Shown in pieces: positions 2,344 through 58,462 of a stretch of DNA of 64,000 bases (its first letter is position 1; each line of letters opens with the position of its first letter). The notes under the pieces are model-generated. The model was not told where the DNA came from and ran no database searches. It was given only the letters and a program-made list of their open reading frames with translations. The translations under genes and the position numbers were made by a program. Location: NCBI GenBank assembly GCA_051313645.2, contig JBNRSN020000018.1, positions 28,954,001 to 29,018,000 on the forward strand, given 5' to 3'. The DNA is from Centroscyllium fabricii (Eukaryota).

Positions 2344-5202
2344 TTAGCCTCTGATGAGCTCCTGCCCTTCAGCCATTCCCCCCGCCCCCCCAATGCTCCT
2401 CCTTAATGTCACCCCAGTGGGTGCATTAATGCTGGTGGAAGGCTGCGGGGTGTCTGAATTTGACACTGCCACAGCCTTCGAAGGTCGGCCTCGACCAGCT
2501 CTGGGCTCAGAGGGCCCAGCTTCAGACTGCTCCACCTCTGAATGGGCGGCACCAGTCTGGTGTACGGGCGGGGCCAACAGCAGTGGAGAAGTGGGACTGC
2601 TGGCAGCAGCAATTCTGCCCTGGTGCGAGAGGCTAGCACCTCCCTGTTCCACCAATGCAGTCTCACTCCCAGGGGCCCGCGCCTCATCTTCCCCAGCAAT
2701 CTGCTGGAGCACAGATTGCTGGCTTGCTGTGGTGCGTTCAGAACCCAGGATAATGGTGTCCGAAGACAGGACGGCACCAGTCAGCTGACGCATGGCATCA
2801 GTAAGTGGCTGCACAGCAGGACCCACTGACTGCACTGCATCAGTGAGCATCTGTGACGCTTCTGCCTGCACTGCTGCGCAGTGCTCGACACTTTGTGCCA
2901 TGTCCTGCATGGCTTCGGGCAATCCCCCCACCGCCTGCATGAGCTCATTTTGCCGCTGCCCTGCCTTGGCTCACATTTGTGAGAGGACCCGCTCGTCCTC
3001 CGCGGTCAGGCCATCAGGGATCGATGACCCACTCTCCTTCCGGGCAACACGCTTTGGAGCTGCCCTCCCCCCACTCCGTTGCTGCACCCCGCTGGGGCCT
3101 GAACCACCCTGCATGTCCCACCACTCCTCGCTCTCCTCTGTGGATGGCGCCCTCCCCCTGTCGCCATCGCCTTCATCGGCAGATAGTGGCCGTCCTGCTC
3201 CTTCTTCCTCTTCCTCCTCCTGGCCTTCCGACGGCGTCTCCTGCGAAGGTTGAGGGGCCGCCTCCTCAGCTGATGATTGACCGTCTGAAACAACAGAGGT
3301 ACAAGAGTCGGTTTAGCGTGAGGACAAGGTGGCAGCGTGAGGACAATGTGGCAGCGTGAGGACAAGGTGGCAGCGTGAGGACAAGATGGCAGAGTGAGGA
3401 CAAGATGGCAGAGTGAGGACAAGATGGCAGAGTGAGGACAAGATGGCAGAGTGAGGACAAGGTGGAGAGTGAGGACAAGATGGCAGCGTGAGGACAAGGT
3501 GGAGAGTGAGGACAAGGTAGCAGCGTGAGGACAAGGTGGAGAGTGAGGACAAGGTGGAGAGTGAGGACAAGGTGGAGAGTGAGGACAAGGTAGCAGCGTG
3601 AGGACAAGGTGGAGAGTGAGGACAAGGTAGCAGCGTGAGGACAAGGTGGAGAGTGAGGACAAGATGGCAGCATGAGGACAAGGTAGCAGCATGAGGACAA
3701 GGTGGAGAGTGAGGACAAGGTGGAGAGTGAGGACAAGGTGGAGAGTGAGGACAAGGTAGCAGCGTGAGGACAAGGTGGAGAGTGAGGACAAGGTAGTAGA
3801 GTGAGGACAAGGTGGAGAGTGAGGACAAGATGGCAGCGTGAGGACAAGGTGGCAGCATGAGAGCAAGCTGGCAGAGTGAGGACAAGATGGCAGAGTGAGG
3901 ACAAGGTGGAGAGTGAGGACAAGGTAGCAGCGTGAGGACAAGGTGGAGAGTGAGGACAAGATGGCAGAGTGAGGACAAGGTGGAGAGTGAGGACAAGATG
4001 GCAGAGTGAGGACAAGGTGGAGAGTGAGGACAAGATGGCAGAGTGAGGACAAGGTGGAGAGTGAGGACAAGGTGGAGAGTGAGGACAAGGTGGCAGAGTG
4101 AGGACAAGATGGCAGAGTGAGGACAAGGTGGCAGAGTGAGGACATGGTGGCAGCGTGAGGACAAGGTGGAGAGTGAGGACAAGGTGGAGAGTGAGGACAA
4201 GGTGGCAGAGTGAGGACATAGTGGCAGCGTGAGGACAAGGTGGAGAGTGAGGACAAGGTGGCAGAGTGAGGACAAGGTGGAGAGTTAGGACAAGGTGGCA
4301 GAGTGAGGACAAGCTGACAGAGTGAGGACATGGTGGCAGCGTGAGGACAAGGTGGCAGAGTGAGGACAAGGTGGCAGAGTGAGGACAAGCTGGCAGAGTG
4401 AGGACAAGATGGCAGCGTGAAGACAAGGTAGCAGCAAGGGAGCAATGAGTGCAGGCACCGACTTCTTTGGATGGAAAGTGCCAAAGGCAGCTGTTGTGAG
4501 GAGCAAGAGGAAGGAGAGAGGAGAGGAAGGTCATGAACTCACCACTGCTGCCCAGAACGGGGTCGGCATCTCCTGAGCCAACAGGAGCACTCAGGCGGTT
4601 GCCCATTATCCTCTGTACACGCACTTCCAGGGGACTCAGCTCCACCAGATCAGGTGGACCGCCACCCATGCAGTCCTGCTCACATCGGTTGTGAGCCAGT
4701 TTCGCCTGCAAGGAAAAGGACAGAGTCTGAGTTACAAGACAGCAAGTTTTTCATCTGAAGTGCATGCCATGGGTGAATAGCCCTTACTGCATGCAAACTG
4801 TCTTTCAGGAAAAGCCTATGCAAAACCCTGGAGCAACAGGCTGATCAAGGACAGTGACCCTGAGGGACATTAGATTCTGGCTGAGTGTTCTGCATTGGGG
4901 GTTTAGAACCCTCTGGCCATACAGTTACGTTGAGATGGAGAGATACACAAAAATACACTCACCCTGACACCCCTAGTGAGGTCGTTGAATTTTTTTCAGC
5001 ACTGATAGAGGGTCCTGGGCACCACGCTGTGGCTGCTGACATGGTGAGTCACCTCCCTCCACAGTTGCCTGCGCTCCTGTGGCACAGGTTTCCTGCCACT
5101 TGCAGCAAACAAAATGGCTCTGCGGGCCTCCACTATAGTGAGCAGGGCCTTCAAGGCCCTGTCACTAAATCTTTCAGCCCTTTCTCTTGGACGGCTCTCC
5201 AT
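2344..5202 (-). pseudogene. Harbinger ORF2 Myb/SANT-like DNA-binding protein, 3 exons (~5202-4963, 4705-4543, 3284-2344)
   Basis: Exon 1 RAERFSDRALKALL...LWREV...RTLYQC*KKFNDL (Myb/SANT trihelix, in-frame stop); exon 2 GGGPPDLVELSPLE; GTGAGT donors and CAG acceptors; convergent to the transposase as is typical of Harbingers. Confidence 0.8.
3316..4435. repeat. Minisatellite of mixed 18/21-bp units (GTGAGGACAAGGTGGAGA / GTGAGGACAAGRTGGCAGMGT-type) in intron 2 of the Harbinger Myb gene
   Basis: Directly visible tandem units; unit lengths divisible by 3 explain the long repetitive ORFs. Confidence 0.95.
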
Positions 5203-18200: not shown

Positions 18201-18925
18201 TTATGTATGTTCATACAAATCAGGTAATGGAGTGAATGAATAAATGGAACAGTGGAGGCTTTAGGAAAGAGCAGTTACAATATGACTGAGTCTTAAAACT
18301 ATGGGAGATTGAATCAGTTTTATTGGGGGGAAAAAGATTAAGGAACATATATGATCCAAGATTGCTTTTTAAAGTCTGTATGAGAGGTACTTAATGCTGA
18401 ACCTTGAAAAGAGAATCAGAATTGTTGAAATTTCATAGAGAAGGTCGCAATCCTACTTGCAATGCTTGCTTACCAGAGCTATCTTCTCTAATCCCATTTC
18501 CTTGCCATTTCCTGTACCCTTTAGTAAATTTCATCTTCAAGTGCTTATCTAATTCCCTCTTAAATCTTAGTGTTCTCTCTGCTTCCTTTCTGTCATCTAA
18601 TAACCCTTTGTGTGTGATGTATCGTCGATGACTCCAATTAAAAGACGACAAGTAGATACCGAAACTAAAAGGCTTTTAATTGCTAAACAATGGAGCTACT
18701 CTCCAGACGAACAACTTTACAGAACTGGGTGGAGCCCCGGTCAGACCACACCTATATAGAGCCTCACAAGGGGAGGAGTCGGGGGTGTGGCTGACCTGGC
18801 TCCCAACAAGATTACAGTAAACAGGGCTGTGCCCAACATCTGCACAGCCCATAATTAGTCATGGTAATACATTGGAATAACTGTGGAATACAGTGGAATA
18901 GAACGGTTACCACATTCACCCCTTC

Positions 18926-20206
18926 TTAAAAACTTTGAGTCCGGGGGGGTGAATGGATCGAACAGTTCATTATAAGACGGTCCGGCGGTTGTTTCTTCCT
19001 GGAGGACTGTCGGCGCACCGGTGTTGGAGGTGATGCCTCCATGGTTGAATAGTCCGCCTCTGCCGGCGCTGTGACTTCCGGTGGTGGTGTGCTCGTCGGG
19101 TCGCAGTCAGGGAAACTCGGGGGCAATCTTGTGTCTGGTGGGTGAACAACTTGATGGCCGGCGGGTGGTGCTGTCATGGTGTTTCCGGCCGGGGCCAGGT
19201 CCCTGATGGACACGGTGTCCTCACGCCCGTCTGGGAACTGCACGAAGGCGTAGTGCGGGTTGGCGTGTAGTAGCTATACCTTGTCCACCAGGGGGTCCGT
19301 TTTGTGGCTCCGGACGTGTCTCTTAAGTAAAACCGGCCCCGGAGTCGTCAGCCATGGGGGAAGGGCTGTTCCCGAAGTAGACCTCCTGTGGAACGAAAAA
19401 ATGAGATCATGCGGAGTGGCGTTAGTAGCAGTACACAACAGTGATCGGATAGAGTGCAGCGCATCTGGGAGGACTGCCTGCCAATGGGACACTGGAAGGC
19501 CTCTGGACTTGAGAGCCAGGGTGACCGCCTTCCAGATGATCCCATTCTCCCTTTCTACCTGGCCGTTCCCCCGGGGGTTATAACTGGTCGTTCTGCTCGT
19601 GGCAACCCCTCTCTGGAGCAGAAACTGGCGCAGTTCATCGCTCATGAACGATGACCCCCGGTCGCTATGCATGTAGCCGGGGAGACCGAAAATGGCGAAC
19701 AGTGTGGTGAAATGTTTGATCACCGTTGCGCTCGTCATATCTGGGCAGGGGAAAGCGAAGGGGAAGCGGGAGAACTCATCCACTACCGTGAGGAAGTATG
19801 AGTTGCGGTCGGTGGAGGGGAGGGGGCCTTTGAAGTCTACGCTGAGACGTTCAAAGGGGCGGGTGGCCTTGATGAGATGCGTCGTGTCTGGCCGGAAAAA
19901 GTGGGGTTTGCACTCGGCACAGACAGGGCACTCTCTGGTTATATCCTTGATCTCCGTGATGGAGTAGGGGAGGCTACGGGATTTGACAAAATGGGCGAGT
20001 CTGGTGACACCCGGGTGACAAAGGCAGTCGTGGAGGTCCTTCAGCCGGTCTAGCTGGGCACTGGCGCACGTTCCCCTGGACAGTGCGTCTGGGGATTCAT
20101 TGAGTTTACCTGGTCGGTAAAGAATGTCGTACTCGTAAGTCGAGAGTTCGATCCGCCACCGCAGGATCTTATCATTCTTGAATTTACCCCGTAGTTTATT
20201 ATTAAA
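18926..20206 (-). pseudogene. Gypsy pol C-terminal part: end of RNase H plus integrase (in-frame stop at ~19274)
   Basis: NDKILRWRIEL, HDCLCHPG, CPVCAECKP, DFKGPLP, DEFSRFPFAF, HSDRGSSF, NGQVEREN. Confidence 0.9.
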
Positions 20207-20615
20207 TGTAACCCTTTTTACGATTGGCCCCCCCCCTCTCCTTTACTGAGAATGGGGGGTAGGTTAATACCAATTACCCCGTAGGTTCTTAACGTACCCC
20301 ACGTGTAGAACTCTGTGACCTGCACCCAAATGTAACCCTTTTACCTTAAGAGAGATGAATCAGAGACAAAATTTATTATTTACAAACTTTAATAACAGGG
20401 ATGGGAGATAGAGTTCAAACACAAACAGTGTTAAACTAGCAACTGCATACACAAATAGAAAGTAGCATTAATGTCATACAACAAATCACTTACACATTCA
20501 TTCAATTCACAGACACTCCCAAGAACACATTTCAACTGGACATTTACAATGGCAAGGCACTCGCTTTAGCACCCTTACAGCTTGTTCCCCAAGCCCTTTT
20601 CTCAGAAGTACTACT

Positions 20616-21531
20616 CACGACTGTCCGAATAGGGCTTGACAATGAGGACCGTACACTACAGTCTCCTCATCTCAAGGGAGACAACGACGGCTCTTGGATC
20701 TGCCTCTGTCCTTTTAACACGAAAGCTTCCAGCATCTTCCAGCAGTGGGCGTCGCACACAGCTCTCCACCCTCTGCTTCCTGCAACCTCGTCTTCCCCAA
20801 GCCCCTCTCCCGGTAGCCGCCACCCACGACTGTCCGAACAGGGCTTGGCAATGAGTACCGTACACAACAGCCTACTCATCCCAAGGGAAACAACGACGGC
20901 TCTTGGGACTGTCTCTCAGTCCTTTTAACACGAAAGCCTCCAGCCTCTTCCAGCAATGGGCGTCGCACACAGCTCTCCACCCTCTGCTTCCTGCAACCTC
21001 GTCTTCCCCAAGCCCTTCTCTCAGTAGCCGCCACCCACGACTGTCCGAACAGGGCTTGGCAATGAGTACAGCCTACTCATCCCAAGGGAAACAACGACGG
21101 CTCTTGGGACTGTCTCTCAGTCCTTTTAACACGAAAGCCTCCAGCATCTTCCAGCAATGGGCGTCGCACACAGCTCTCCACCCTCTGCTTCCTGCAACCT
21201 CGTCTTCCCCAAGCCCTTCTCTCAGTAGCCGCCACCCACGACTGTCCGAACAGGGCTTGGCAATGAGTACAGCCTACTCATCCCAAGGGAAACAACGACG
21301 GCTCTTGGGACTGTCTCTCAGTCCTTTTAACACGAAAGCCTCCAGCATCTTCCAGCAATGGGCGTCGCACACAGCTCTCCACCCTCTGCTTCCTGCAACC
21401 TCGTCTTCCCCAAGCCCTTCTCTCAGTAAGTGCTACTCACGACTGTCCAAATAGGGCTCGACGATGAGGACCGTACACTACAGCCTCCTCATCCCCAGGG
21501 AGATAACGACGGCTCTTGGAACTGCCTCTCT
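20616..21531. repeat. Tandem array of ~201-211 bp units (4 full + 1 partial) in the 3' LTR
   Basis: Units begin CACGACTGTCC at 20616, 20825, 21036, 21237 and 21438. Confidence 0.93.
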
Positions 21532-22456
21532 CATGGCTTCTCTGGATCTTTCCCGGATCTTCTCTCCATCTAACCTCCTGCTCAATCTTCTCCCTTCTCT
21601 CCAGCTCAATCTTACTCCTTCTCTCCAGCTCAATCTTACTCCTTCTGGATCTAACTAACTGTCTCTAGGCGTGTCCAGCCTTTTATCCTGTCCTGGCTCC
21701 ACCCTCCAGCAACTCACCCCACTTTTAGCCAGCCTATCGCAAAGCAATCACACAGCCCCCACCTGCAAGACCCCTTGTTTTTCCAGACTGCCCGGAGCCG
21801 AGTGCTGGTTTCCATGGCAGCCCAGCCTATCTGAAACATTGTCCATTCTCACACCTGGTCAACAACCCCATGTGATCTGAACTTCCAGACAAACTGGCAC
21901 CGAAGAGGTCACCTGACCTCAGACCACTGGATCCCTAGATTTTTAACCCTTTAGGGAGATTCTCCCTGACTCTGGGTTTCAGACCCAGGTTACACTCCCC
22001 CCTTACCAAACCTAGTCATGTCCTCATGACTACACCACAAAGTAACCGTGCTCACGTCCATCTCTCTCTCGGCAACAATGGGTTCACTCCACTAGGGTAT
22101 GAAACTGGAAGTCACAGTATCCCGAAGACGAGCCCCCAAATGTAACCCTTTTTACGATTGGCCCCCCCCCTCTCCTTTACTGAGAATGGGGGGTAGGTTA
22201 ATACCAATTACCCCGTAGGTTCTTAACGTACCCCACGTGTAGAACTCTGTGACCTCCACCCAAATGTAACCCTTTTACCTTAAGAGAGATGAATCAGAGA
22301 CAAAATTTATTATTTACAAACTTTAATAACAGGGATGGGAGATAGAGTTCAAACACAAACAGTGTTAAACTAGCAACTGCATACACAAATAGAAAGTAGC
22401 ATTAATGTCATACAACAAATCACTTACACATTCATTCAATTCACAGACACTCCCAA

Positions 22457-22684
22457 GAACACACTTCAATCAGAACTTTACAATGGCAAGGCACTCGCTT
22501 TAGCACCCTTCCAGAACACATTTCAATCAGAACTTTACAATGGCAAGGCACTCGCTTTAGCACCCTTACAGAACACATTTCAATCAGAACTTTACAATGG
22601 CAAGGCACTCGCTTTAGCACCCTTACAGAACACATTTCAACTGGACATTTACAATGGCAAGGCACTCGCTTTAGCACCCTTACA
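22457..22684. repeat. Four tandem 57-bp units in the 5' LTR (single unit in the 3' LTR)
   Basis: GAACACATTTCAATCAGAACTTTACAATGGCAAGGCACTCGCTTTAGCACCCTTACA x4; LTR length difference 171 = 3 x 57. Confidence 0.93.
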
Positions 22685-22720
22685 GCTTGTTCCCCAAGCC
22701 CTTTTCTCAGAAGTACTACT

Positions 22721-23636
22721 CACGACTGTCCGAATAGGGCTTGACAATGAGGACCGTACACTACAGTCTCCTCATCTCAAGGGAGACAACGACGGCTCTT
22801 GGATCTGCCTCTGTCCTTTTAACACGAAAGCTTCCAGCATCTTCCAGCAGTGGGCGTCGCACACAGCTCTCCACCCTCTGCTTCCTGCAACCTCGTCTTC
22901 CCCAAGCCCCTCTCCCGGTAGCCGCCACCCACGACTGTCCGAACAGGGCTTGGCAATGAGTACCGTACACAACAGCCTACTCATCCCAAGGGAAACAACG
23001 ACGGCTCTTGGGACTGTCTCTCAGTCCTTTTAACACGAAAGCCTCCAGCCTCTTCCAGCAATGGGCGTCGCACACAGCTCTCCACCCTCTGCTTCCTGCA
23101 ACCTCGTCTTCCCCAAGCCCTTCTCTCAGTAGCCGCCACCCACGACTGTCCGAACAGGGCTTGGCAATGAGTACAGCCTACTCATCCCAAGGGAAACAAC
23201 GACGGCTCTTGGGACTGTCTCTCAGTCCTTTTAACACGAAAGCCTCCAGCATCTTCCAGCAATGGGCGTCGCACACAGCTCTCCACCCTCTGCTTCCTGC
23301 AACCTCGTCTTCCCCAAGCCCTTCTCTCAGTAGCCGCCACCCACGACTGTCCGAACAGGGCTTGGCAATGAGTACAGCCTACTCATCCCAAGGGAAACAA
23401 CGACGGCTCTTGGGACTGTCTCTCAGTCCTTTTAACACGAAAGCCTCCAGCATCTTCCAGCAATGGGCGTCGCACACAGCTCTCCACCCTCTGCTTCCTG
23501 CAACCTCGTCTTCCCCAAGCCCTTCTCTCAGTAAGTGCTACTCACGACTGTCCAAATAGGGCTCGACGATGAGGACCGTACACTACAGCCTCCTCATCCC
23601 CAGGGAGATAACGACGGCTCTTGGAACTGCCTCTCT
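22721..23636. repeat. Same ~200-bp unit array in the 5' LTR
   Basis: Matches 20616-21531 at an offset of 2105. Confidence 0.93.
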
Positions 23637-24099
23637 CATGGCTTCTCTGGATCTTTCCCGGATCTTCTCTCCATCTAACCTCCTGCTCAATCTTCTCCCT
23701 TCTCTCCAGCTCAATCTTACTCCTTCTCTCCAGCTCAATCTTACTCCTTCTGGATCTAACTAACTGTCTCTAGGCGTGTCCAGCCTTTTATCCTGTCCTG
23801 GCTCCACCCTCCAGCAACTCACCCCACTTTTAGCCAGCCTATCGCAAAGCAATCACACAGCCCCCACCTGCAAGACCCCTTGTTTTTCCAGACTGCCCGG
23901 AGCCGAGTGCTGGTTTCCATGGCAGCCCAGCCTATCTGAAACATTGTCCATTCTCACACCTGGTCAACAACCCCATGTGATCTGAACTTCCAGACAAACT
24001 GGCACCGAAGAGGTCACCTGACCTCAGACCACTGGATCCCTAGATTTTTAACCCTTTAGGGAGATTCTCCCTGACTCTGGGTTTCAGACCCAGGTTACA

Positions 24100-26425
24100 T
24101 AAACATAAACGCCACCGACCATTGGTCGGTGAGCAGGGTAAAACGCTTACCGGCCAGGTAATGACGCCAGTCGCGCACGGCCTCCACAATGGCCTGAGCC
24201 TCCTTTTCCACTGCAGAGTGGCGAGTCTTGGGTCCCTGTAGGGTGCGGGAGAAAAACGCTACGGGCCTGCCTGCCTGATTCAGGGTGGCAGCAAGGGCAA
24301 AGTCCGAAGCGTCGCTCTCCACCTGGAAGGGAATGGATTCATCAACAGCGAGCATGGTCGCCTTGACGATGTCTTCCTTTATCCTTGCAAAAGCCGTCTG
24401 GGCTTCTGCAGAAAGGGGGAAGGCGGCAGCCTTGAGAAGTGGTCTAGCCTTATCTGCGAACTGTGGGACCCATTGTGCATAATAGGAGAAAAATCCTTGG
24501 CATCTCCTCAAGGCTTTGGGGTTGTGAGGTAGGGGCAGTTCTTGCAGGGGTCGCATACGCTGTGGGTCGGGGCCGAGGAGCCCGTTCTCCACCACGTATC
24601 CGAGAATGGCGAGCCGGGTTGTATTAAAGACACATTTGTCTTTGTTATACGTAAGGTCCAGCTTGTCCGCCGTGGCGAGGATTTTGGCCAGATTGGCATC
24701 GTGGTCCTGCTGGTCGTGGCCGCAGATGGTCACGTTGTCCAGGTAAGGGAAGGTGGCCTGCAAGTCATTCTGGTCAACCATACGGTCCATCTCCCATTGG
24801 AACACGGACACTCCATTGGTCACGCCAAAGGGGACCCGGAGGAAGTGGTAGAGCCGACCGTTCGCCTCGAAGGCGGTGTAGGGGCGGTCGGCTTTCCAAA
24901 TCGGGAGCTGATGATACGCCGATTTAAGGTCGATCGTAGAGAACACCTTGTACTGGCCGATCTGATTGACCATGTCTGAGATGCGGGGAAGGGGGTAGGC
25001 GTCGAGCCCGGTGTAGCGGTTGATAGTCTGGCTGTAATCGATCACCAGCCGTTGTTTCTCGCCAGACTTCACCACCACAACTTGGGCGCGCCAGGGGCTG
25101 GTGCTGGCTTCAATTATTCCCTCCTTTAGCATCCGCCCGACCTCCGACCTGATAAACGTGCGATCCCCCTCACTGTACCGCCGACTCTTAGTGGAAATGG
25201 GCTTGCACTTGGGATCGAGGTTGGCGAACAGCGAGGGGGGGTCGATTTTCAGGGTGGAGAGGCCGCAGGCCGGGCTCCGCTTTGGGGGGGAATTGTCCCT
25301 GCTACTGACGGTGAGTGACGGTAAGGTCCCGCCGAACTCCACTGTCACACTCTGGAAGTGGCACTGGAAATCCAAACCTAGTAAGGCTGGGGCACACAAC
25401 TGTTGGAGGGTATACAATCTAAAATTACGGTACACGCGCCCCTTGATGGTGAGCGTGACGGAGCAGTAGCCGGTGATGTCCGCGGTGTGGGACTGTGAAG
25501 CTAGGGAGATTTGGTAGTTGGTGGGCAGGATCTGCAGTCCGCAGCGCCGCACTGTATCCGGGTGGATGAAACTCTCCGTGCTGCCTGTGTCGAAAAGACA
25601 GTCAACAGTATGGTTGTTAATCTTTATAGGTATTATTGAGTTAGACAGGGTATGAGGCCTGCCCTGGCTAACTCTGATTTTAGCTGCAGCAGCAGCCCCT
25701 GCTGGTCGGGGCTGTGCACAAGATGGCCTTGCCCCAAAACAAAATGGCGTCGTCCCTGCCCCGCACAGAGAGGGGCACTCGTGACAAAATGGTGTCGCCC
25801 CTGGCCCGCAGCTCGTGGAACCCCGTACATCTGATGACGTCGCCCCAAAACAAAATGGCGCCGTCCCTGCCCCGCGCAGGGAGGGGCCCTTGAAGCAAAA
25901 TGGCGCCACCCCTGGCCCGCAGCTCGCGGAACCCCGTACATCTGATGACGTCGCCCCAAAACAAAATGCCGCCGTCCCTGCCCCGCACAGGGAGGGGCCC
26001 TTGAAGCAAAATGGCGCCGCCCCTGGCCCGCAGCTCGCGGAACCCCGTACATCTGATGACGTCGCCCCTGCCCTGCACGTGGAGGAGCCCTTGGTATAGG
26101 GAGACATCGCCCCTGGCCCGCAGCTCGTGGAACCCCGTACATCTGATGACGTCACCCCAGCCCCGCACGTGGAGGAGCCCTTGGTATTAGGAGATGTCGC
26201 CCCTGGCCCGCAGCTCGAGGGACCCCGTGCATAAGATGGCGCCGTCCTTGGCCCGCATATGGAGGGGCTCTGTCTCTGGCGTGGAGCCTCTGAAGGGCCC
26301 TGTGAACGCGCTGGCGGCGCCCGTGATTCGCACGCAGCAGACCGCGGTGGTCGGGTTAGCGGTGCCCGTGATTCGCACGCAGCCGGCCGCGTTGGGGGGT
26401 CGCGCTTGGCCGGCCTTCTCTGCAT
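24100..26425 (-). CDS. Gypsy pol N-terminal part (repeat linker, protease, RT, RNase H), interrupted by the nested element
   Basis: CLFDTGSTESF protease; RLVIDYSQTIN, FSTIDLKSAYHQ, VPFGVTNG, PYLDNVTICG RT; ESDASDFALAA, EKEAQAIVEAV RNase H. Confidence 0.9.
25730..26255. repeat. In-frame tandem repeats (~66-120 bp) between gag and protease
   Basis: Repeated peptides GATSSDVRGSASCGPG and APFCFKGPSLCGAG; repeated CAAAATGGCG and GATGACGTC on +. Confidence 0.85.
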
Positions 26426-27330
26426 CAGGTAAGAAGGGGTGGGGGCGCTCGTTGTCTACCCCCGTACCGTCGCTGGATCGCGCTGCTAATGCATCTTACC
26501 TGGTTGGTGCTCTCACAGGCTGCACTGTTGTACCTTCTGCTAGGCGCTGGTGGAGATGCTGCTGGAGCTGACTTGCAGACCCTAGCGAAGTGCCCCTTCT
26601 TCGAGCATTTTTCACAGCTCGCTGTCCTGGCTGGACATTTCGCTCTAGGGTGCAGTCCTTGGCCGCAGAAGTAACAGTGCTTATTTTTAATGTCTTTAGT
26701 GACCGTCGCGGCCATCGTGGGGGCCTCGGCCCGTGGCGCCCAGGCCTGGGCCTGTTGTGGCGCGGCCCATATGTTGTAGGCTTGCGGGTTTGTGCCGCTG
26801 TACGCCTGTAACTTGCTACGGGCCCCCTCTACCGATTTGGCTAACTTGGTCGCCTCCTCGAGGGTCAAATTGTCTCTCTCAAGTAGCCGCTGATGGGCTT
26901 CTACACACCTCAGTCCTGTGACGTAAGCTTCCCGAATGAGGAGTTCTTCCTCCTCTGCAATAGTGGTACCTTTGCAGCCACAGGCCCGTACCAGGGCCAG
27001 GAGCGCTTGCTCAAACTCCTCGTTTGACTCACCCGGTAGCTGGGATCGGGTCGCCAGCACGTGTCGGGCGTAGACAGAGTGGACCGGGCATTCGTAGCAT
27101 TTCTTCAGGACTTCTACGGTTTTTTCGTAGGTTGGGGCGTTCATGACGAGGGTGAATACCCTGCTGGAGATCCTAGATCTCAGGACATGTAGCTTGTCCT
27201 TGTCCGAAGTAGCCTTGGCGGCTTCCGTGTAGGCCTCCAGTAGGCCGAACCAGTGTTTGAAGGTAGCGGGAGCAGCCGCGTCCTGGGGACTGATGTCCAG
27301 CTTCTCAGGCTTTACCGTGCTGCAATCCAT
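26425..27330 (-). CDS. Gypsy gag with two zinc knuckles
   Basis: KPEKLDISP...FKHW; YARHVLATRSQLPGES; CYFCGQGLHPRAKC and CEKCSKKGHFARVC. Confidence 0.9.
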   Translation of the reverse strand: MDCSTVKPEKLDISPQDAAAPATFKHWFGLLEAYTEAAKATSDKDKLHVLRSRISSRVFTLVMNAPTYEKTVEVLKKCYECPVHSVYARHVLATRSQLPGESNEEFEQALLALVRACGCKGTTIAEEEELLIREAYVTGLRCVEAHQRLLERDNLTLEEATKLAKSVEGARSKLQAYSGTNPQAYNIWAAPQQAQAWAPRAEAPTMAATVTKDIKNKHCYFCGQGLHPRAKCPARTASCEKCSKKGHFARVCKSAPAASPPAPSRRYNSAACESTNQVRCISSAIQRRYGGRQRAPPPLLT

Positions 27331-28019
27331 TTTAACTTTTAGCAATTAAAATTGATGTATCGTCGATGACTCCAATTAAAAGACGACAAGTAGATACCGA
27401 AACTAAAAGGCTTTTAATTGCTAAACAATGGAGCTACTCTCCAGATGAACAACTGTACAGAACTGGGTGGAGCCCCGGTCAGACCACACCTATATAGAGC
27501 CTCACAAGGGGAGGAGTCGGGGGTGTGGCTGACCTGGCTCCCAACAAGATTACAGTAAACAGGGCTGTGCCCAACATCTGCACAGCCCATAATTAGTCAT
27601 GGTAATACATTGGAATAACTGTGGAATACAGTGGAATAGAACGGTTACCACAGTGTGAAAATATTTCTTCTAAACTCCCTCTTGATGTCTCATGAACCAA
27701 TTCTAAAGTAATAAAGCCCATGAATCAGAAATAGTTTTCTATTGATAATAAAAACAGAAAATATATGTATGATAGGGGCTGGGGTTATGATCTGAAATTG
27801 TTGAACTCTATGTTGAGTCCAGAAGGCTGTAAAGTGCCTAATCGTTTTCTATTGTCCTGGCACTGCCAACCCTTATATGCATGAGTTGCACGTACAAAAT
27901 TAGTAAACACTGACAAAACGTCAGAGCACTACAAGGAAACAATGGATCATGTTGGTGCCCTTGTGAGGTCCACAGTGGCTTTCAAAGGTTGCTTTTTAAG
28001 TTCCGTACACCTTACAGAC

Positions 28020-40895: not shown

Positions 40896-41541
40896 TGAAA
40901 GTGTTTAGTAAGCCATTAAAACATGGACACACTCCCAAAGAACCCCCCTGCAATCATTGACACTCCCAGAGACCCCTGCAAACACTGACACTCCCAGAGA
41001 CCCCTGCAAACACTGACACTCCCAGAGACCCCTGCAAACACTAACACTCCCAGAGACCCCTGCAAACACTGACACTCCCAGAGACCCCTGCAAACACTGA
41101 CACTCCCAGAGACCCCCTGCAAAAACTGACACTCCCAGAGACCCCCTGCAAAAACTGACACTCCCAGAGACCCCCTGCAAACACTGACACTCCCAGAGAC
41201 CCCCTGCAAAAACTGACACTCCCAGAGACTCCCTGCAAACACTGACACTCCCAGAGACCCCCTGCAAACACTGACACTCCCAGAGACCCCCTGCAAAAAT
41301 TGACAGTCCCAGAGACCCCCCTGTAAACACTGACATGCCCAGAGACCCCCTGCAAACACTGACACTCCCAGAGACCCCCTGCAAACACTGACACTCCCAG
41401 CGACCCCCTGCAAAAACTGACACTCCCAGAGACCCCCCTGTAAACACTGACATGCCCAGAGACACCCCTGCGAACATTTACACTCCCAGTGACCCCCTGT
41501 AAACACTGACACTCTGCCAGAGACCCCCCTGCAAACACTGA

Positions 41542-42321
41542 GGCGTCAATTTTCCCATAGGTGCGGGCAATTGGTGGGTTTCGGGCAGGTCAGGGAGGCC
41601 CATGCAATTTTGGCTCAATTGGCCAATTAATTCCCTGCATGCGGGAACCCCTGCAAATTGACTGATTTCAGACAGAAAGCCAGCGGGGTTCCCATTGTGT
41701 AACCACCAGAGCCCTTGATTAACAAGTCTAAGTAGTTTGGATTGCTTGTATCTGTTGACTGAGTGCTTTGTGATGTCATAAAGCCCTGGAACCACAAGCC
41801 CTTGATTGACAAGTCTCAGTAGTTTTGATTGCTTGTATCCTCTTGACAGCTAGGGAAGACCTATCTGTCAATCAATGGAAATCAGCTGTAAGGTGAGTTT
41901 TTGAAAGGTTTTTTCCCACTGATCTGTTTCACCCTAGGGATACAGTTAGTCCCAATGCAGGCTGGAGCCCTGGGATGGCTTCTGCTGCAGCTGCTTGAAT
42001 GATAGTCAGGAAGTCACTAGTGTCCCTGCCAGGTTTCACCAGCGGGGTTTGAGACTGTTGGGTTATAGGAGGGAAATGCTTCAAAATCATGGGGGGCCCT
42101 TAAAATGACATTATACATGCCAATTAGAGGTCCCTAATGAGCCTAATGACCATCCCCACTGGCCGCTGGTGGGAAAGATTCGGGATGGCTTGACATGGCG
42201 GTGGGAAATCGCAAAGCAGTGGGAATCCAGCGAGGGGGGGGTGTCGGGATCCCCCGTTTTTTGTATTTTATGACCATTCCCGCTGAAAAGCCTGCCTCAC
42301 GGCTCACTGAAAGTTGATGCC
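41542..42321. mobile_element. Harbinger-type MITE inserted in the minisatellite; TSD TGA
   Basis: TIRs GGCGTCAATTTTC / GAAAGTTGATGCC; perfect 3-bp TSD at 41539-41541 and 42322-42324; related to 62155-62946. Confidence 0.85.
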
Positions 42322-43564
42322 TGACACTCTCCCAGAGACCCCCCCTGCGAACACTGACACTCCCAGAGACCCCCTGCGAACACTGACACACCCAGAGACC
42401 CACTGCAAACACTGACACATTCCCAGAGACCCCCTGCAAATACTGCCACTCCCAGAGACCCCCGCGAACATTGACACTCCCAGAGACCTCTGCAAACACT
42501 GACCCACTCCCAGAGACCCTCCTGCAAACACTGACACTCCCCCAAAGACCCACTGAAAACACTGACACTCCTCGAGACCCCCTGCAAACACTGACACTCC
42601 CATAGACCCCCCTGCAAACACTGACACTCTCCCAGAGACCCCTATACACTCTGACACTCCCAGAGACCCCCCTGTAAACACTGACACTCCCAGAGAGGCT
42701 CCTGCAAACATTGACACTCCCAGCGACCCCCCTGTAAACACTGACACTCCCCCAGAGACCCTCTGCAAACACTGACACTCTCCCAGAGACCCCGTGCGAA
42801 CATTGACACTCCCAGAGACCCCCCTGTAAACTCTGACACTCCCATAGACCCTCCTGCAAACACTGACACTCCCCCAGAGACCCCGTGCGAACATTGACAC
42901 TCCCAGAGACCCCCGCTGTAAACTCTGACACTCCCATAGACCCCCCTGCAAATGCTGACACTCTCCCAGAGACCTCTGTAAACTCTGACACTCCCCCAGA
43001 GACCCCTGCAAACATTGACACTCTCCCAGAGCCCCCTGTAAACTCTGACACTCCCCCAGAGACCCCCTGCGAACACTGACACTCCCAGAGACCCCCTGCA
43101 AACACTGACACTCCTAGAGACCCCTGTAAACTCTGACACTCTCCCAGAGACGCCCTGCAAACACTGACACTCCCCCAGAGACCTCCCTGTAAACTCTGAC
43201 ACTCCCCCAGAGACTCCCTGCGAACACTGACACTCCCCCAGAGACCCCCCTGTAAACTCTGACACTCCCCCAGAGACCCCCTGCGAACACTGACACTCCC
43301 AGAGACCCCATGTAAAGACTGACACTCCCCCAGAGATCCCCTGTGAACACTGACACTCCCAGAGACGCCTGTAAACACTGACACTCTCCCAGAGATCCCC
43401 TGCGAACACTGACACTCCTAGAGACCCCTGTAAACTCTGACACTCTCCCAGAGACGCCCTGCGAACACTGACACTCCCAGAGACCCCCTGTAAACACTGA
43501 CACTCCCCCAGAGATCCCCTGCGAACACTGACACTCCCAGAGACCCCTGCAAACATTGACACTC

Positions 43565-43685
43565 AATTCAATTCAATTCAATTCAAGTTGCTTTATTGGC
43601 ATGACAAGATACATCCTATGTTGCCAAAGCACAGAAAAAGAACATATACAGTTGGACATACAAATGCATAACCAGACGTATTGAA
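43565..43685 (-). mobile_element. Short 3' end of a (TTGAA)n-tailed LINE, distinct from the Rex1 UTR
   Basis: CATGCCAATAAAGC plus TTGAA repeats on -; flanked by TGACACTC on both sides. Confidence 0.7.
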
Positions 43686-45304
43686 TGACACTCTCCCAGA
43701 GACCCCCTGTAAACACTGACACTCCCCAGAGACCCCCTGTAAACACTGACACTCCCTGGACACCCCCTGTAAACATTGACACTCTCCCAGGGACCCTCTG
43801 CAAACACTGACACTTCCAGAGACCCCCCTGTAAACTCTGACACTCCCATAGACCCTCCTGCAAACATTGACACTCCCATAGACCCCCTGTAAACACTGAC
43901 ACTCTCCCAGAGACCCCCCTGTAAACACTGACACTCTCCCAGAGACCCCCTGCAAACATTGACACTCCGAGACCCCCCTGCAAACACTGACACTCCGAGA
44001 CCCCCCTGCAAACACTGACACTCCGAGACCCCCCTGCAAACACTGACACTCCCCCAGAGACCCCCCTGCAAACATTGACACTCTCCCAGGGACCTCACTG
44101 TAAACACTGACAATCCCCCAGAGACCCCCCTGTAAACACTGACACTTCCAGAGACCCCCTGCGAACACTGACACTCCCCAGAGACCCCCCTGCAAACATT
44201 GACACTCCCAGGGTATTTTATTATCATACAGCAACTCAAAATAATGTGCTAGGAAAGCAACAAAAATAGCATCGATGCATTTAAGCGTGAGCTCGATAAA
44301 CACAGGAATGAGGAAGGAATAGAGGAATATGCTGATAGGGTGAGATGAAGTAGGGTGGGAGGATCGTGTGGAGCCTAAACTCCGGTATGGACCAGTTGGG
44401 CTGAATGGTCAGTTTCTGTGCTGCACATTCTAGACAATTCGACATAAAATAGAAGACAATCGGGAATTTTTGATGGACCGTGCTGGTGGATTGCAGTCTG
44501 CCTGGCCTCAGATGGAGTGGAATCAGTTTGAAAAGCTCTGCTGTGACGCGATTGCCAAACAAGTCATAGGAAATTTTGTCAGTCGCCTATTTGCAACATT
44601 TTGAATACGTGACAGCTATGGGCCGATTTCCATCATTGTCCTACCTTGCATTGATCCTGGTAATGATCAGCCTCTTGCCTGTATTTGCTACCCAGCTGTT
44701 GTTTAAATAAATAAAGTAAATATTGCCGCTAAATGGATCAGCACTCTGACTCGAATAAGTTTTGTGGAGAACGATTAGATCACTGATGCCTAACGGCACT
44801 ATCAATGATCCAGATAATAGCAGAATTGATGACTGGTACAATGATGCTAATTAGTTCAACAGCCAATTTATTAAAACTGGGCTCGGACTCTCTCTCTCTC
44901 ATAATACCCATCAGAGCTGTTCATTTGCACAGCTGACTTACATTGAAATTTTGGCACAATTACATGGCAACTGAGCCAGGTGCTGATGGTGAAAGTTCTG
45001 GAAACCGGTTAAAACGAGGGCCATTGATGCCTCTAACTAGTATTATTGCTGTCAGTTTTCTCACTCTCGTAACAGTGGAGTCTGCCTCTCTGCATTGTGT
45101 GTAAACTACTTGATAAAGAAGGTATTCGATGCCTTGCCGCCCCCATTAACACCAGCGATGTGGTTGGAACCATTTTGAAAACACTGCTGCCTGTATCCTA
45201 ACTCACACCAAGTCCTGTTCACCCACCAGTCCCTGTGCTCCCGGTCCGGAATTGTCTTGATTTTTAAAATCGCCATCTTTGTGTTCAAATTTCTCTACAG
45301 CCTA

Positions 45305-57678: not shown

Positions 57679-58462
57679 CAGGTACACAACCCTTTATCCG
57701 AAAACCTCCGGACCGGGCGGGTTTCGGTTTTCGGATAAATACGGTTTTTAGAGTTGGCCACAGTGCGCATGCGCAGATCGCAATCGCATGCGCAATTCCG
57801 TGTTTGCAGTCCAGCTCGCAGTCGGGTAACGGCATATCGGCCGTTTGCAGGGGGAGATCGGCCGTTTGCAGGGGGAGATTGGCCGTTTGCAGGAGGAGAT
57901 CGACCGTTTGGAGCGGGAGATCGGCCGTTTGGAGCGGGAGATCAGCCGTTTGCAGGGGGAGATCGGCCGTTTGCAGCGGGAGATCGGCCGTTTGCAGGGG
58001 GAGATCGGCCGTTTGGAGCGGGAGATCAGCCGTTTGCAGGGGGAGATCGGCCGTTTGCAGCGGGAGATCGGCCGTTTGCAGGAGGAGATCGACCGTTTGG
58101 AGCGGGAGATCGGCCGTTTGCAGCGGGAGATCGGCCGTTTGCAGGAGGAGATCGACCGTTTGCAGGGGGAGATCGGCCGTGTGCAGTGGGAGATCGGCCG
58201 TGTGCAGTGGGAGATCGGCCGTTTGCTGAAGGAGATTGGCCGTTTGCAGGGGGAGATCGGCCGTTTGCAGGGGGAGATCGGCCGTTTGGAGCAGGAGATC
58301 GGCCGGTTTTTTCCACAGCACGGCATCAACAGCATGAGATCGGGGGAGGAATGTGTTTTTTCTGCTGCAGCTTCAATTTATTTAAGAAAAAAATTATTTC
58401 AGAAAAGCTTTTCGGTTTTTGGAGCTTTTCGGTTTTGTTGCGGATAAGGGACTGTGTACCTG
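57679..58462. mobile_element. Tc1/mariner-pogo-type MITE (TA TSD) carrying a 21-bp tandem array
   Basis: TIRs CAGGTACACAACCCTTTATCCG / CGGATAAGGGACTGTGTACCTG flanked by TA on both sides. Confidence 0.85.
57834..58305. repeat. About 22 copies of a 21-bp unit GGGAGATCGGCCGTTTGCAGG
   Basis: Directly visible; no length variants seen. Confidence 0.95.

Follow-up and report, generated by a model that had tools for sequence, protein, structure and literature searches.

A recently active, near-empty LTR retroelement family in Centroscyllium fabricii, probably derived by internal deletion from a co-resident PNMA-gag Ty3/Gypsy element

The locus and its question

The window (the whole stretch of DNA analysed, 64,000 nucleotides) contains a retroelement of 3893 bp whose two long LTRs enclose an interior of only 146 bp. 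The question is where such an element comes from and what moves it. A sequence-only reading had proposed a new class of recently active, non-autonomous element, with nearly all cis-information in the LTR and a helper other than the Gypsy element into which it is inserted.

Structure of the element

PBS and PPT are placed such that the element runs on the minus strand, which makes the right-hand LTR the 5' LTR. The features are listed below in window positions; 'helper' denotes the long coding element described further down.

18615-27652, minus strand: host Gypsy, of a lineage unrelated to the element, with 300-bp LTRs and the 5-bp TSD GTGTG
20203-20206, no strand: left TSD copy TAAA (flank match)
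24100-24103, no strand: right TSD copy TAAA (flank match)
22141-24099, minus strand: right-hand LTR (5' LTR), 1959 bp, ends TGTAACC...GGTTACA
20207-21994, minus strand: left-hand LTR (3' LTR), 1788 bp, ends TGTAACC...GGTTACA
23755-24099, minus strand: putative U3 of the 5' LTR, ~345 bp, from a TATA-like motif and the identity switch described below
21650-21994, minus strand: putative U3 of the 3' LTR, counterpart of 23755-24099
23785-23792, also 21680-21687, minus strand: TATA-like motif GATAAAAG, putative function
22690-23647, also 20585-21542, minus strand: tandem array of ~200-bp units in the putative R
22456-22685, minus strand: four 57-bp units of the 5' LTR (one unit in the 3' LTR)
22321-22327, also 20387-20393, minus strand: ATTAAA, likely polyadenylation signal, putative function
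22265-22276, also 20331-20342, minus strand: inner copy of the LTR 3' end with a PBS-like start, ~124 bp inside U5
22119-22138, minus strand: tRNA-Pro primer-binding site with a 2-nt insertion
22031-22140, minus strand: helper-derived 5' piece, 110 nt, with PBS, leader and first 10 gag codons (ATG at 22061)
21995-22032, minus strand: helper-derived 3' piece, 38 nt, with pol stop codon, hairpin and PPT
22013-22032, minus strand: 8-bp hairpin inside the 3' piece
21995-22007, minus strand: PPT inside the 3' piece
22031-22032, minus strand: TA common to both helper-derived pieces

The architecture described from the letters alone was recovered: the only differences between the two LTRs are a single substitution (G at 20322, C at 22256) and an indel of 171 bp, which corresponds to three extra 57-bp units in the longer LTR; TAAA is present on both flanks; and PBS, hairpin and PPT all lie within the interior at 21995-22140. 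As described, the insertion lies in a Gypsy pol, where it separates the RNase H part from the integrase part. The host LTRs (18615-18914 and 27353-27652, 300 bp each) show two mismatches between them.

The PBS is complementary to the 3' end of the genome's own tRNA-Pro genes (ARAGORN), in agreement with the proposed primer, though with the 2-nt insertion. In this check, the four loci taken first contained no gene, and one of three further loci contained two tRNA-Pro genes. On two other contigs (G000:C480 and C945; loci L173 and L175), tRNA-Pro-like gene arrays carry an insert after the anticodon region and ARAGORN made no call; the array on C480 has a spacing of ~3.9 kb.

The statement that the element has no recognisable coding capacity is correct in that no gene is left, but the first 10 codons of the helper gag are still recognisable in the interior. 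A Pfam search of two LTR ORFs gave no match, and a coding role for the LTR ORFs was dropped. Compared with 100 shuffles, no special RNA structure was seen in the interior (z +1.3), the 201-bp unit (z -1.8), the 57-bp units (z 0.0) or U5 (z -1.2).

Two further kinds of tandem repeat were recorded in the window. The host Gypsy carries in-frame 111-bp and 90-bp tandem repeats upstream of its protease (25722-26265), and long minisatellite arrays with periods of 19, 29-31 and 21 bp lie at 3318-4434, 40929-44211 and 57836-58305, respectively.

A recently active family

Near-empty copies with an interior of 143-146 bp are called minis here and were counted by the exact deletion-junction motif. This motif occurred 927 times in the 7.2 Gb genome (control motif: 0). 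Searching with the interior plus the LTR ends yielded 1958 candidates; the 40 that were scored had 99-100% identity. LTR starts numbered 3306; the first 100 listed comprised 21 short elements (three of them with three LTRs), 15 long elements and 25 singles.

Twenty of the scored loci formed a first sample, and all 20 had a 146-bp interior and their own perfect 4-bp TSD; the LTR pairs differed by 0-7 substitutions, and two of the 20 were three-LTR tandems. The second sample was drawn from the junction listing of contig C1, where 20 of the first 33 were taken and eight tandem or paired rows and five loci fetched before were left out. Again, the 4-bp TSD was perfect in 20/20, and the interiors measured 144-146 bp. 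A third set of complete minis had a perfect 4-bp TSD in three of four. The TSDs followed the pattern Y-N-N-R in 22/24 minis and 16/19 long copies, and more weakly in the second mini sample (13/20). With 927 junctions and an own TSD in 40/40 copies of the two samples, the family is recently active, multi-copy and non-autonomous, as had been proposed; the copy count with one interior and different TSDs, suggested as a check, has thereby been supplied.

The same counts bear on a one-off post-insertion deletion or an assembly artefact, the case that the sequence-only reading had named as its refutation. At the locus itself, none of the public-run pieces listed crosses the whole 751-bp stretch. Against this stand the 927 exact junctions with distinct TSDs, and a 302-bp contig (X10) from an independent public run that crosses the junction with four differences and no gap at a depth of 2.9. 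The run carries another organism label, which may reflect a related species or a labelling matter. For the family this explanation is refuted, and we give it practically no credence.

The LTR pairs differed at 32 of 33,015 bp in 20 minis (~1.0/kb) and at 19 of 24,775 bp in 20 long copies (~0.8/kb). As these divergences are similar, minis and helper were active at the same time. LTR length was dropped as a mark of younger copies, since the two were not correlated in 20 minis (rho -0.10, p 0.66).

Two composite arrays were also seen. One (L178, G000:C1:301545000-301552600) has four LTRs of 1310, 1549, 1549 and 1310 bp inside one TSD; its middle two LTRs are only 6 bp apart, and that junction occurs once in the genome. 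The other (L177, G000:C1:511792000-511801900) is a four-LTR array in one TSD with identical outer LTRs of 1648 bp and inner LTRs of 2703 and 1854 bp.

A co-resident candidate helper

The search for a helper covered 31 of 72 LTR-PBS junctions listed on C1, namely those without an exact PPT motif at short distance. Ten were mini variants and 21 ran into a long interior. Among 20 long copies fetched whole, the interior was 5.2 kb in 18, both frames were open in 15 and the 4-bp TSD was perfect in 18. The gag frame contains the Pfam domains PNMA_N, PNMA and a zf-CCHC zinc knuckle, and pol contains RT, RNase H and integrase in this order. No Pfam match was found for a protease, with a DTG motif visible upstream of RT, and a search for env found no third frame of 150 codons in the full-length interiors. 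Gag followed by an RT-RH-IN pol without env is the order of Ty3/Gypsy. PNMA-gag Ty3/Gypsy elements of fish have the same three gag domains. The best named relatives are fish proteins (~40-48% identity); no close relative was found among 8000 candidates scored.

Helper and mini have LTR ends, PBS, PPT and the 4-bp TSD length in common, so that the autonomous element to be looked for by its LTR termini and PBS is present, in ~450 copies. Helper-type motifs were counted 443 times (5') and 462 times (3'), internally deleted long copies included, with zero for each control; compared with the 927 junctions, minis outnumber long copies by ~2:1. The match of the partner in sequence, TSD length and age suggests that the minis are mobilised in trans by this helper. 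Five PBS variants among helper and mini copies leave the tRNA-Pro complement after ~10-12 nt and persist in young copies, which suggests that only part of the PBS is restored from the tRNA.

The host Gypsy was considered as a helper and ruled out: its TSD has 5 bp, its PBS and LTR are different, and its pol is only 30% identical to the true helper pol over 402 aa. The proposal that the helper is not the host is thus borne out.

The tRNA-Pro PBS and 4-bp TSD had also been read as resembling gamma/epsilon-like ERVs and some fish Gypsy lineages. The genome does contain a Gag_p30 ERV family (L051-L068; 27 matches scored, 18 fetched), with an LTR of ~510 bp unrelated to the mini LTR and a tRNA-Pro PBS in 17/18 loci, as a non-autonomous ERV moved by it would lead one to expect. 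In a BLAST of mini LTR and interior, none of the 18 ERV 5' regions gave a match, and the 5' part of the mini interior is identical to the Gypsy with the same LTR. The ERV derivation was rejected, and we regard mobilisation by this ERV as extremely improbable.

Origin of the interior

In the window, the first 110 nt of the helper and its last 38 nt meet at a TA microhomology to form the interior. The 110 nt have no mismatch to helper copies L111 and L117, and the 38 nt start at the pol stop codon and hold hairpin and PPT. Judged from this junction, the mini arose by a deletion of apparently ~5.07 kb, comprising nearly all of gag and all of pol. Splicing was rejected as the source, since the sequence at the junction is not what a GT-AG cut would leave. 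Because it sits in the 38 nt, the hairpin was inherited from the helper 3' end; it is mismatched in 5/20 long copies and 1/51 minis. A stop at gag codon 8 was found in 27/51 minis and 0/40 long copies.

Six more internal-deletion derivatives were taken from the listings; their TSDs are intact and their interiors range from 129 to 2523 bp. The shortest interior belongs to an independent near-empty derivative (L180, G000:C2:89869000-89873600) with 129 bp between LTRs of 1175 bp, whose junction occurs seven times. Both independent near-empty families retain the PBS-leader and the 3' end, and together they delimit the interior required for mobility: ~87-110 nt behind the first LTR and 38-45 nt ahead of the second. 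By length, the LTR does hold most of the cis-information; by function, this is putative.

Why the LTRs are long

Helper LTRs measured 1056-1351 bp (40 copies), and mini LTRs of the second sample 1354-2173 bp (median 1691), with no overlap (p = 4e-10). Some minis outside this sample were shorter, with LTRs of 1134-1197 bp. The 57-bp unit is present two to five times in minis of the second sample and once in 40/40 long copies. The ~200-bp unit is present three to five times in 13/20 minis vs 1/40 long copies, the latter a full-length copy with three units, and most helper LTRs have one unit. By this comparison, the long LTR is mostly inherited from the helper and enlarged by the 200-bp and 57-bp repeats. 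From the middle of the helper LTR, a 275-bp segment is lacking in 31/51 minis and also in 7/40 long copies. Changes in R are therefore not exclusive to minis.

With a TATA-like motif near LTR position 308 and ATTAAA ~185 bp before the LTR end, we infer a U3 of ~345 bp, a U5 of ~165 bp and between them a very long R in which the repeats lie, with limits based on these motifs and the identity switch. For the copy in the window, this division would predict a transcript of ~3.2 kb. The putative leader contains a median of 16 ATGs in minis vs five in helpers, an excess that fits a loss of translational constraint. The inner copy of the LTR end with its PBS-like start, ~124 bp inside the LTR, is present in most helper and mini copies and may mark an older, later extended LTR end.

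Split ancestry of U3 and R/U5

We compared 51 of ~900 minis with 40 of ~450 long copies, the long copies all from one contig. In U3, the distance of minis to the nearest long copy was 1.2% in the median (0.9% for the element in the window), and 35/51 lay within 2%. In the R segment, the median was 7.3% and none of 50 lay within 2%. For the last 170 bp it was 4.7%, with 7/51 within 2%, and for the last 330 bp 4.7-5.7%. In 26/51 minis analysed in 50-bp windows, the distance was 0-1 up to LTR position 325 and jumped at 350, which places an identity switch near position 345; it was back to 0-1 in the last 45 bp of the LTR and in the leader. The leader diverges by a median of 2% among helpers; because it is conserved there anyway, leader identity is weak evidence of exchange.

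The trees separate the two parts of the LTR. In the U3 tree, built from 90 rows after dropping one helper that carries a U3 duplication, minis and helpers are intermingled: 11 label changes are needed, and strong branches force at least five of these. The R/U5 tree, also of 90 rows but lacking one mini, needs two label changes, and 47 of 50 minis form one clade with an SH-aLRT of 99 and no helper inside. An AU test on the U3 tree rejected the 47-mini clade (p = 1.5e-7); as the 47 had been grouped by the R/U5 tree, only this U3 test is independent. Four minis lie outside the main R/U5 clade or are unplaced, so the junction may have arisen more than once. The mini R/U5 clade contains no sequence from the 40 long copies. 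Possibly such an R/U5 does not suit a coding element, or sampling may account for its absence there; a helper subfamily beyond the 40 copies could match it.

Four PBS variants occur in minis and long copies alike. U3 and PBS variants of the minis match several helper subfamilies, pointing to repeated exchange in reverse transcription. The mosaic pattern is observed; the mechanism is what it suggests, and the exchange may have run in either direction.

The same origin might also have gone without any exchange, with U3 and leader kept alike by selection or minis re-derived repeatedly from current helpers. The leader does vary little among helpers, and deletions are frequent, with six further derivatives and one junction in seven copies. 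However, helper U3s are a median of 7.5% apart among themselves (every third copy compared) and minis stand beside several helper U3 types; the helper-free R/U5 clade and the codon 8 stop, seen in minis alone, likewise speak against this reading. We consider an origin without exchange unlikely.

Mosaic LTRs could further be produced by gene conversion between chromosomal copies instead of template switching. Since the arrays L177 and L178 combine unlike LTRs inside one TSD, DNA-level recombination does occur. Yet both LTRs of each mini carry the same variant, with 0-7 substitutions between them, so the U3 exchange predates insertion, and the switch falls at the putative U3/R edge. Gene conversion is a still weaker candidate, quite improbable in our judgement, and exchange during reverse transcription is the reading followed below.

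Comparison with known element classes

TRIMs have a total length of <1 kb, or 1.5 kb in a relaxed definition (PMC4717578; bioRxiv 10.64898/2026.03.01.708851; PMC10886601). The minis share with TRIMs a short non-coding interior between two LTRs, the presence of PBS and PPT, a TSD in the 4-6 bp range and many dispersed copies. Their size is not that of a TRIM, with 3893 bp in the window and LTRs of 1134-2173 bp across copies. LARDs exceed 4 kb with a non-coding interior of ~3.5 kb (bioRxiv 10.64898/2026.03.01.708851), and the mini interior has 143-146 bp. A TR-GAG keeps a gag domain with or without protease, and the minis keep 10 gag codons, often with the stop at codon 8. The mini would function like a TRIM with a known partner, yet it is oversize, and it is neither a LARD nor a TR-GAG.

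The rice TRIM OsajRetroS10 is derived from the autonomous OsajLTRA10 (PMC4717578). It is similar in its LTR-PBS-PPT-LTR structure without coding capacity, internal deletion, near-identical partner LTRs and three-LTR tandems, but it is <1 kb with partner-sized LTRs (115 bp), whereas minis measure 2.4-4.5 kb and their LTRs outgrew the partner's; its junction is a 25-bp repeat (PMC4717578), and that of the mini a 2-nt microhomology. In sugar beet, families form a size continuum with LTRs up to 5.5 kb and relatively short interiors in 65/115, a nameless class of 1.5-4 kb, tandem copies and mostly a Gypsy origin where traceable (bioRxiv 10.64898/2026.03.01.708851). Minis resemble these in long LTRs, short interiors, tandems and Gypsy origin; the difference is that beet is a plant and that clean deletion breakpoints are not described in the accessible part of that source (bioRxiv 10.64898/2026.03.01.708851). 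The Helenus-group vertebrate TRIMs (zebrafish LTR-11_DR, coelacanth LTR1/2_LCh; 311-1263 bp) are likewise from fish genomes, with 4-bp TSDs, thousands of copies, tandem arrays and a presumed Gypsy helper, but their LTR promoter is tRNA-derived (PMC10886601). In the mini, the LTRs are much longer and contain a TATA-like motif, and the helper has been identified.

The proposal of a new class did not hold. The mini is, by all appearances, an internal-deletion derivative of a PNMA-gag Gypsy with LTRs of 1.06-1.35 kb, and plant parallels are described; the structure by itself is no new class, and the kind of parasite is known, here unusually large and traceable. Our literature search, a weak one that covered few subscription papers and neither Repbase nor Dfam, returned no report of the mini family or of a vertebrate long-LTR near-empty family.

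LTR swapping between autonomous and non-autonomous partners was reportedly described in soybean by Du et al. 2010. In Onsen, the first template switch is described as a point where recombination takes place, within R (PMC5668417). Both plant cases resemble ours in having mosaic LTRs by template switching among co-packaged relatives.

Proposed mechanism and meaning

Taken together, we think it very probable that the family originated by internal deletion of a co-resident PNMA-gag Ty3/Gypsy element, is mobilised by this helper and exchanges LTR parts with it. Mini RNA would be transcribed from U3, packaged in helper particles and reverse-transcribed from a tRNA-Pro primer, and the helper integrase would insert the DNA. 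Since the mini no longer has to make Gag, its long R would tolerate loss of the helper segment and growth of the 200-bp and 57-bp units, leading to LTRs of 1.1-2.2 kb. Where helper and mini RNA share a particle, the reverse transcriptase could switch templates. The first jump would use R homology, as in Onsen (PMC5668417), and a second switch in U3, PPT or the 38-nt piece would restore the mini body. This would swap U3 and PBS/leader variants with the helper, while R/U5 would stay a separate lineage.

The origin is more ordinary than the sequence-only reading supposed, and the family is real and well resolved. It provides, within a single vertebrate genome, a parasite together with its helper, the two of similar age, and deletion point, copy numbers and LTR mosaics can all be read. 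Because U3 and R/U5 differ in ancestry, the idea that such elements track their partner by exchanging LTR parts can be tested outside plants as well. Moreover, near-empty long-LTR elements are easily mis-annotated as tandem solo LTRs. What stays of interest is that the empty form outnumbers its helper by ~2:1, that repeats have grown in its R region, and that U3 is apparently exchanged with the helper.

A more far-reaching idea, which we offer tentatively and hold to be rather doubtful, is that the mini behaves like a defective-interfering RNA: it would repeatedly capture the helper's current U3 and primer-site variants, keep its own R/U5 and out-replicate the helper by ~2:1 with the amplified R modules as packaging or strand-transfer signals. 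The PNMA/Gypsy lineage is the source of the domesticated PNMA capsid genes. If the idea is true, hundreds of natural mosaics would map the cis-signals of this lineage.
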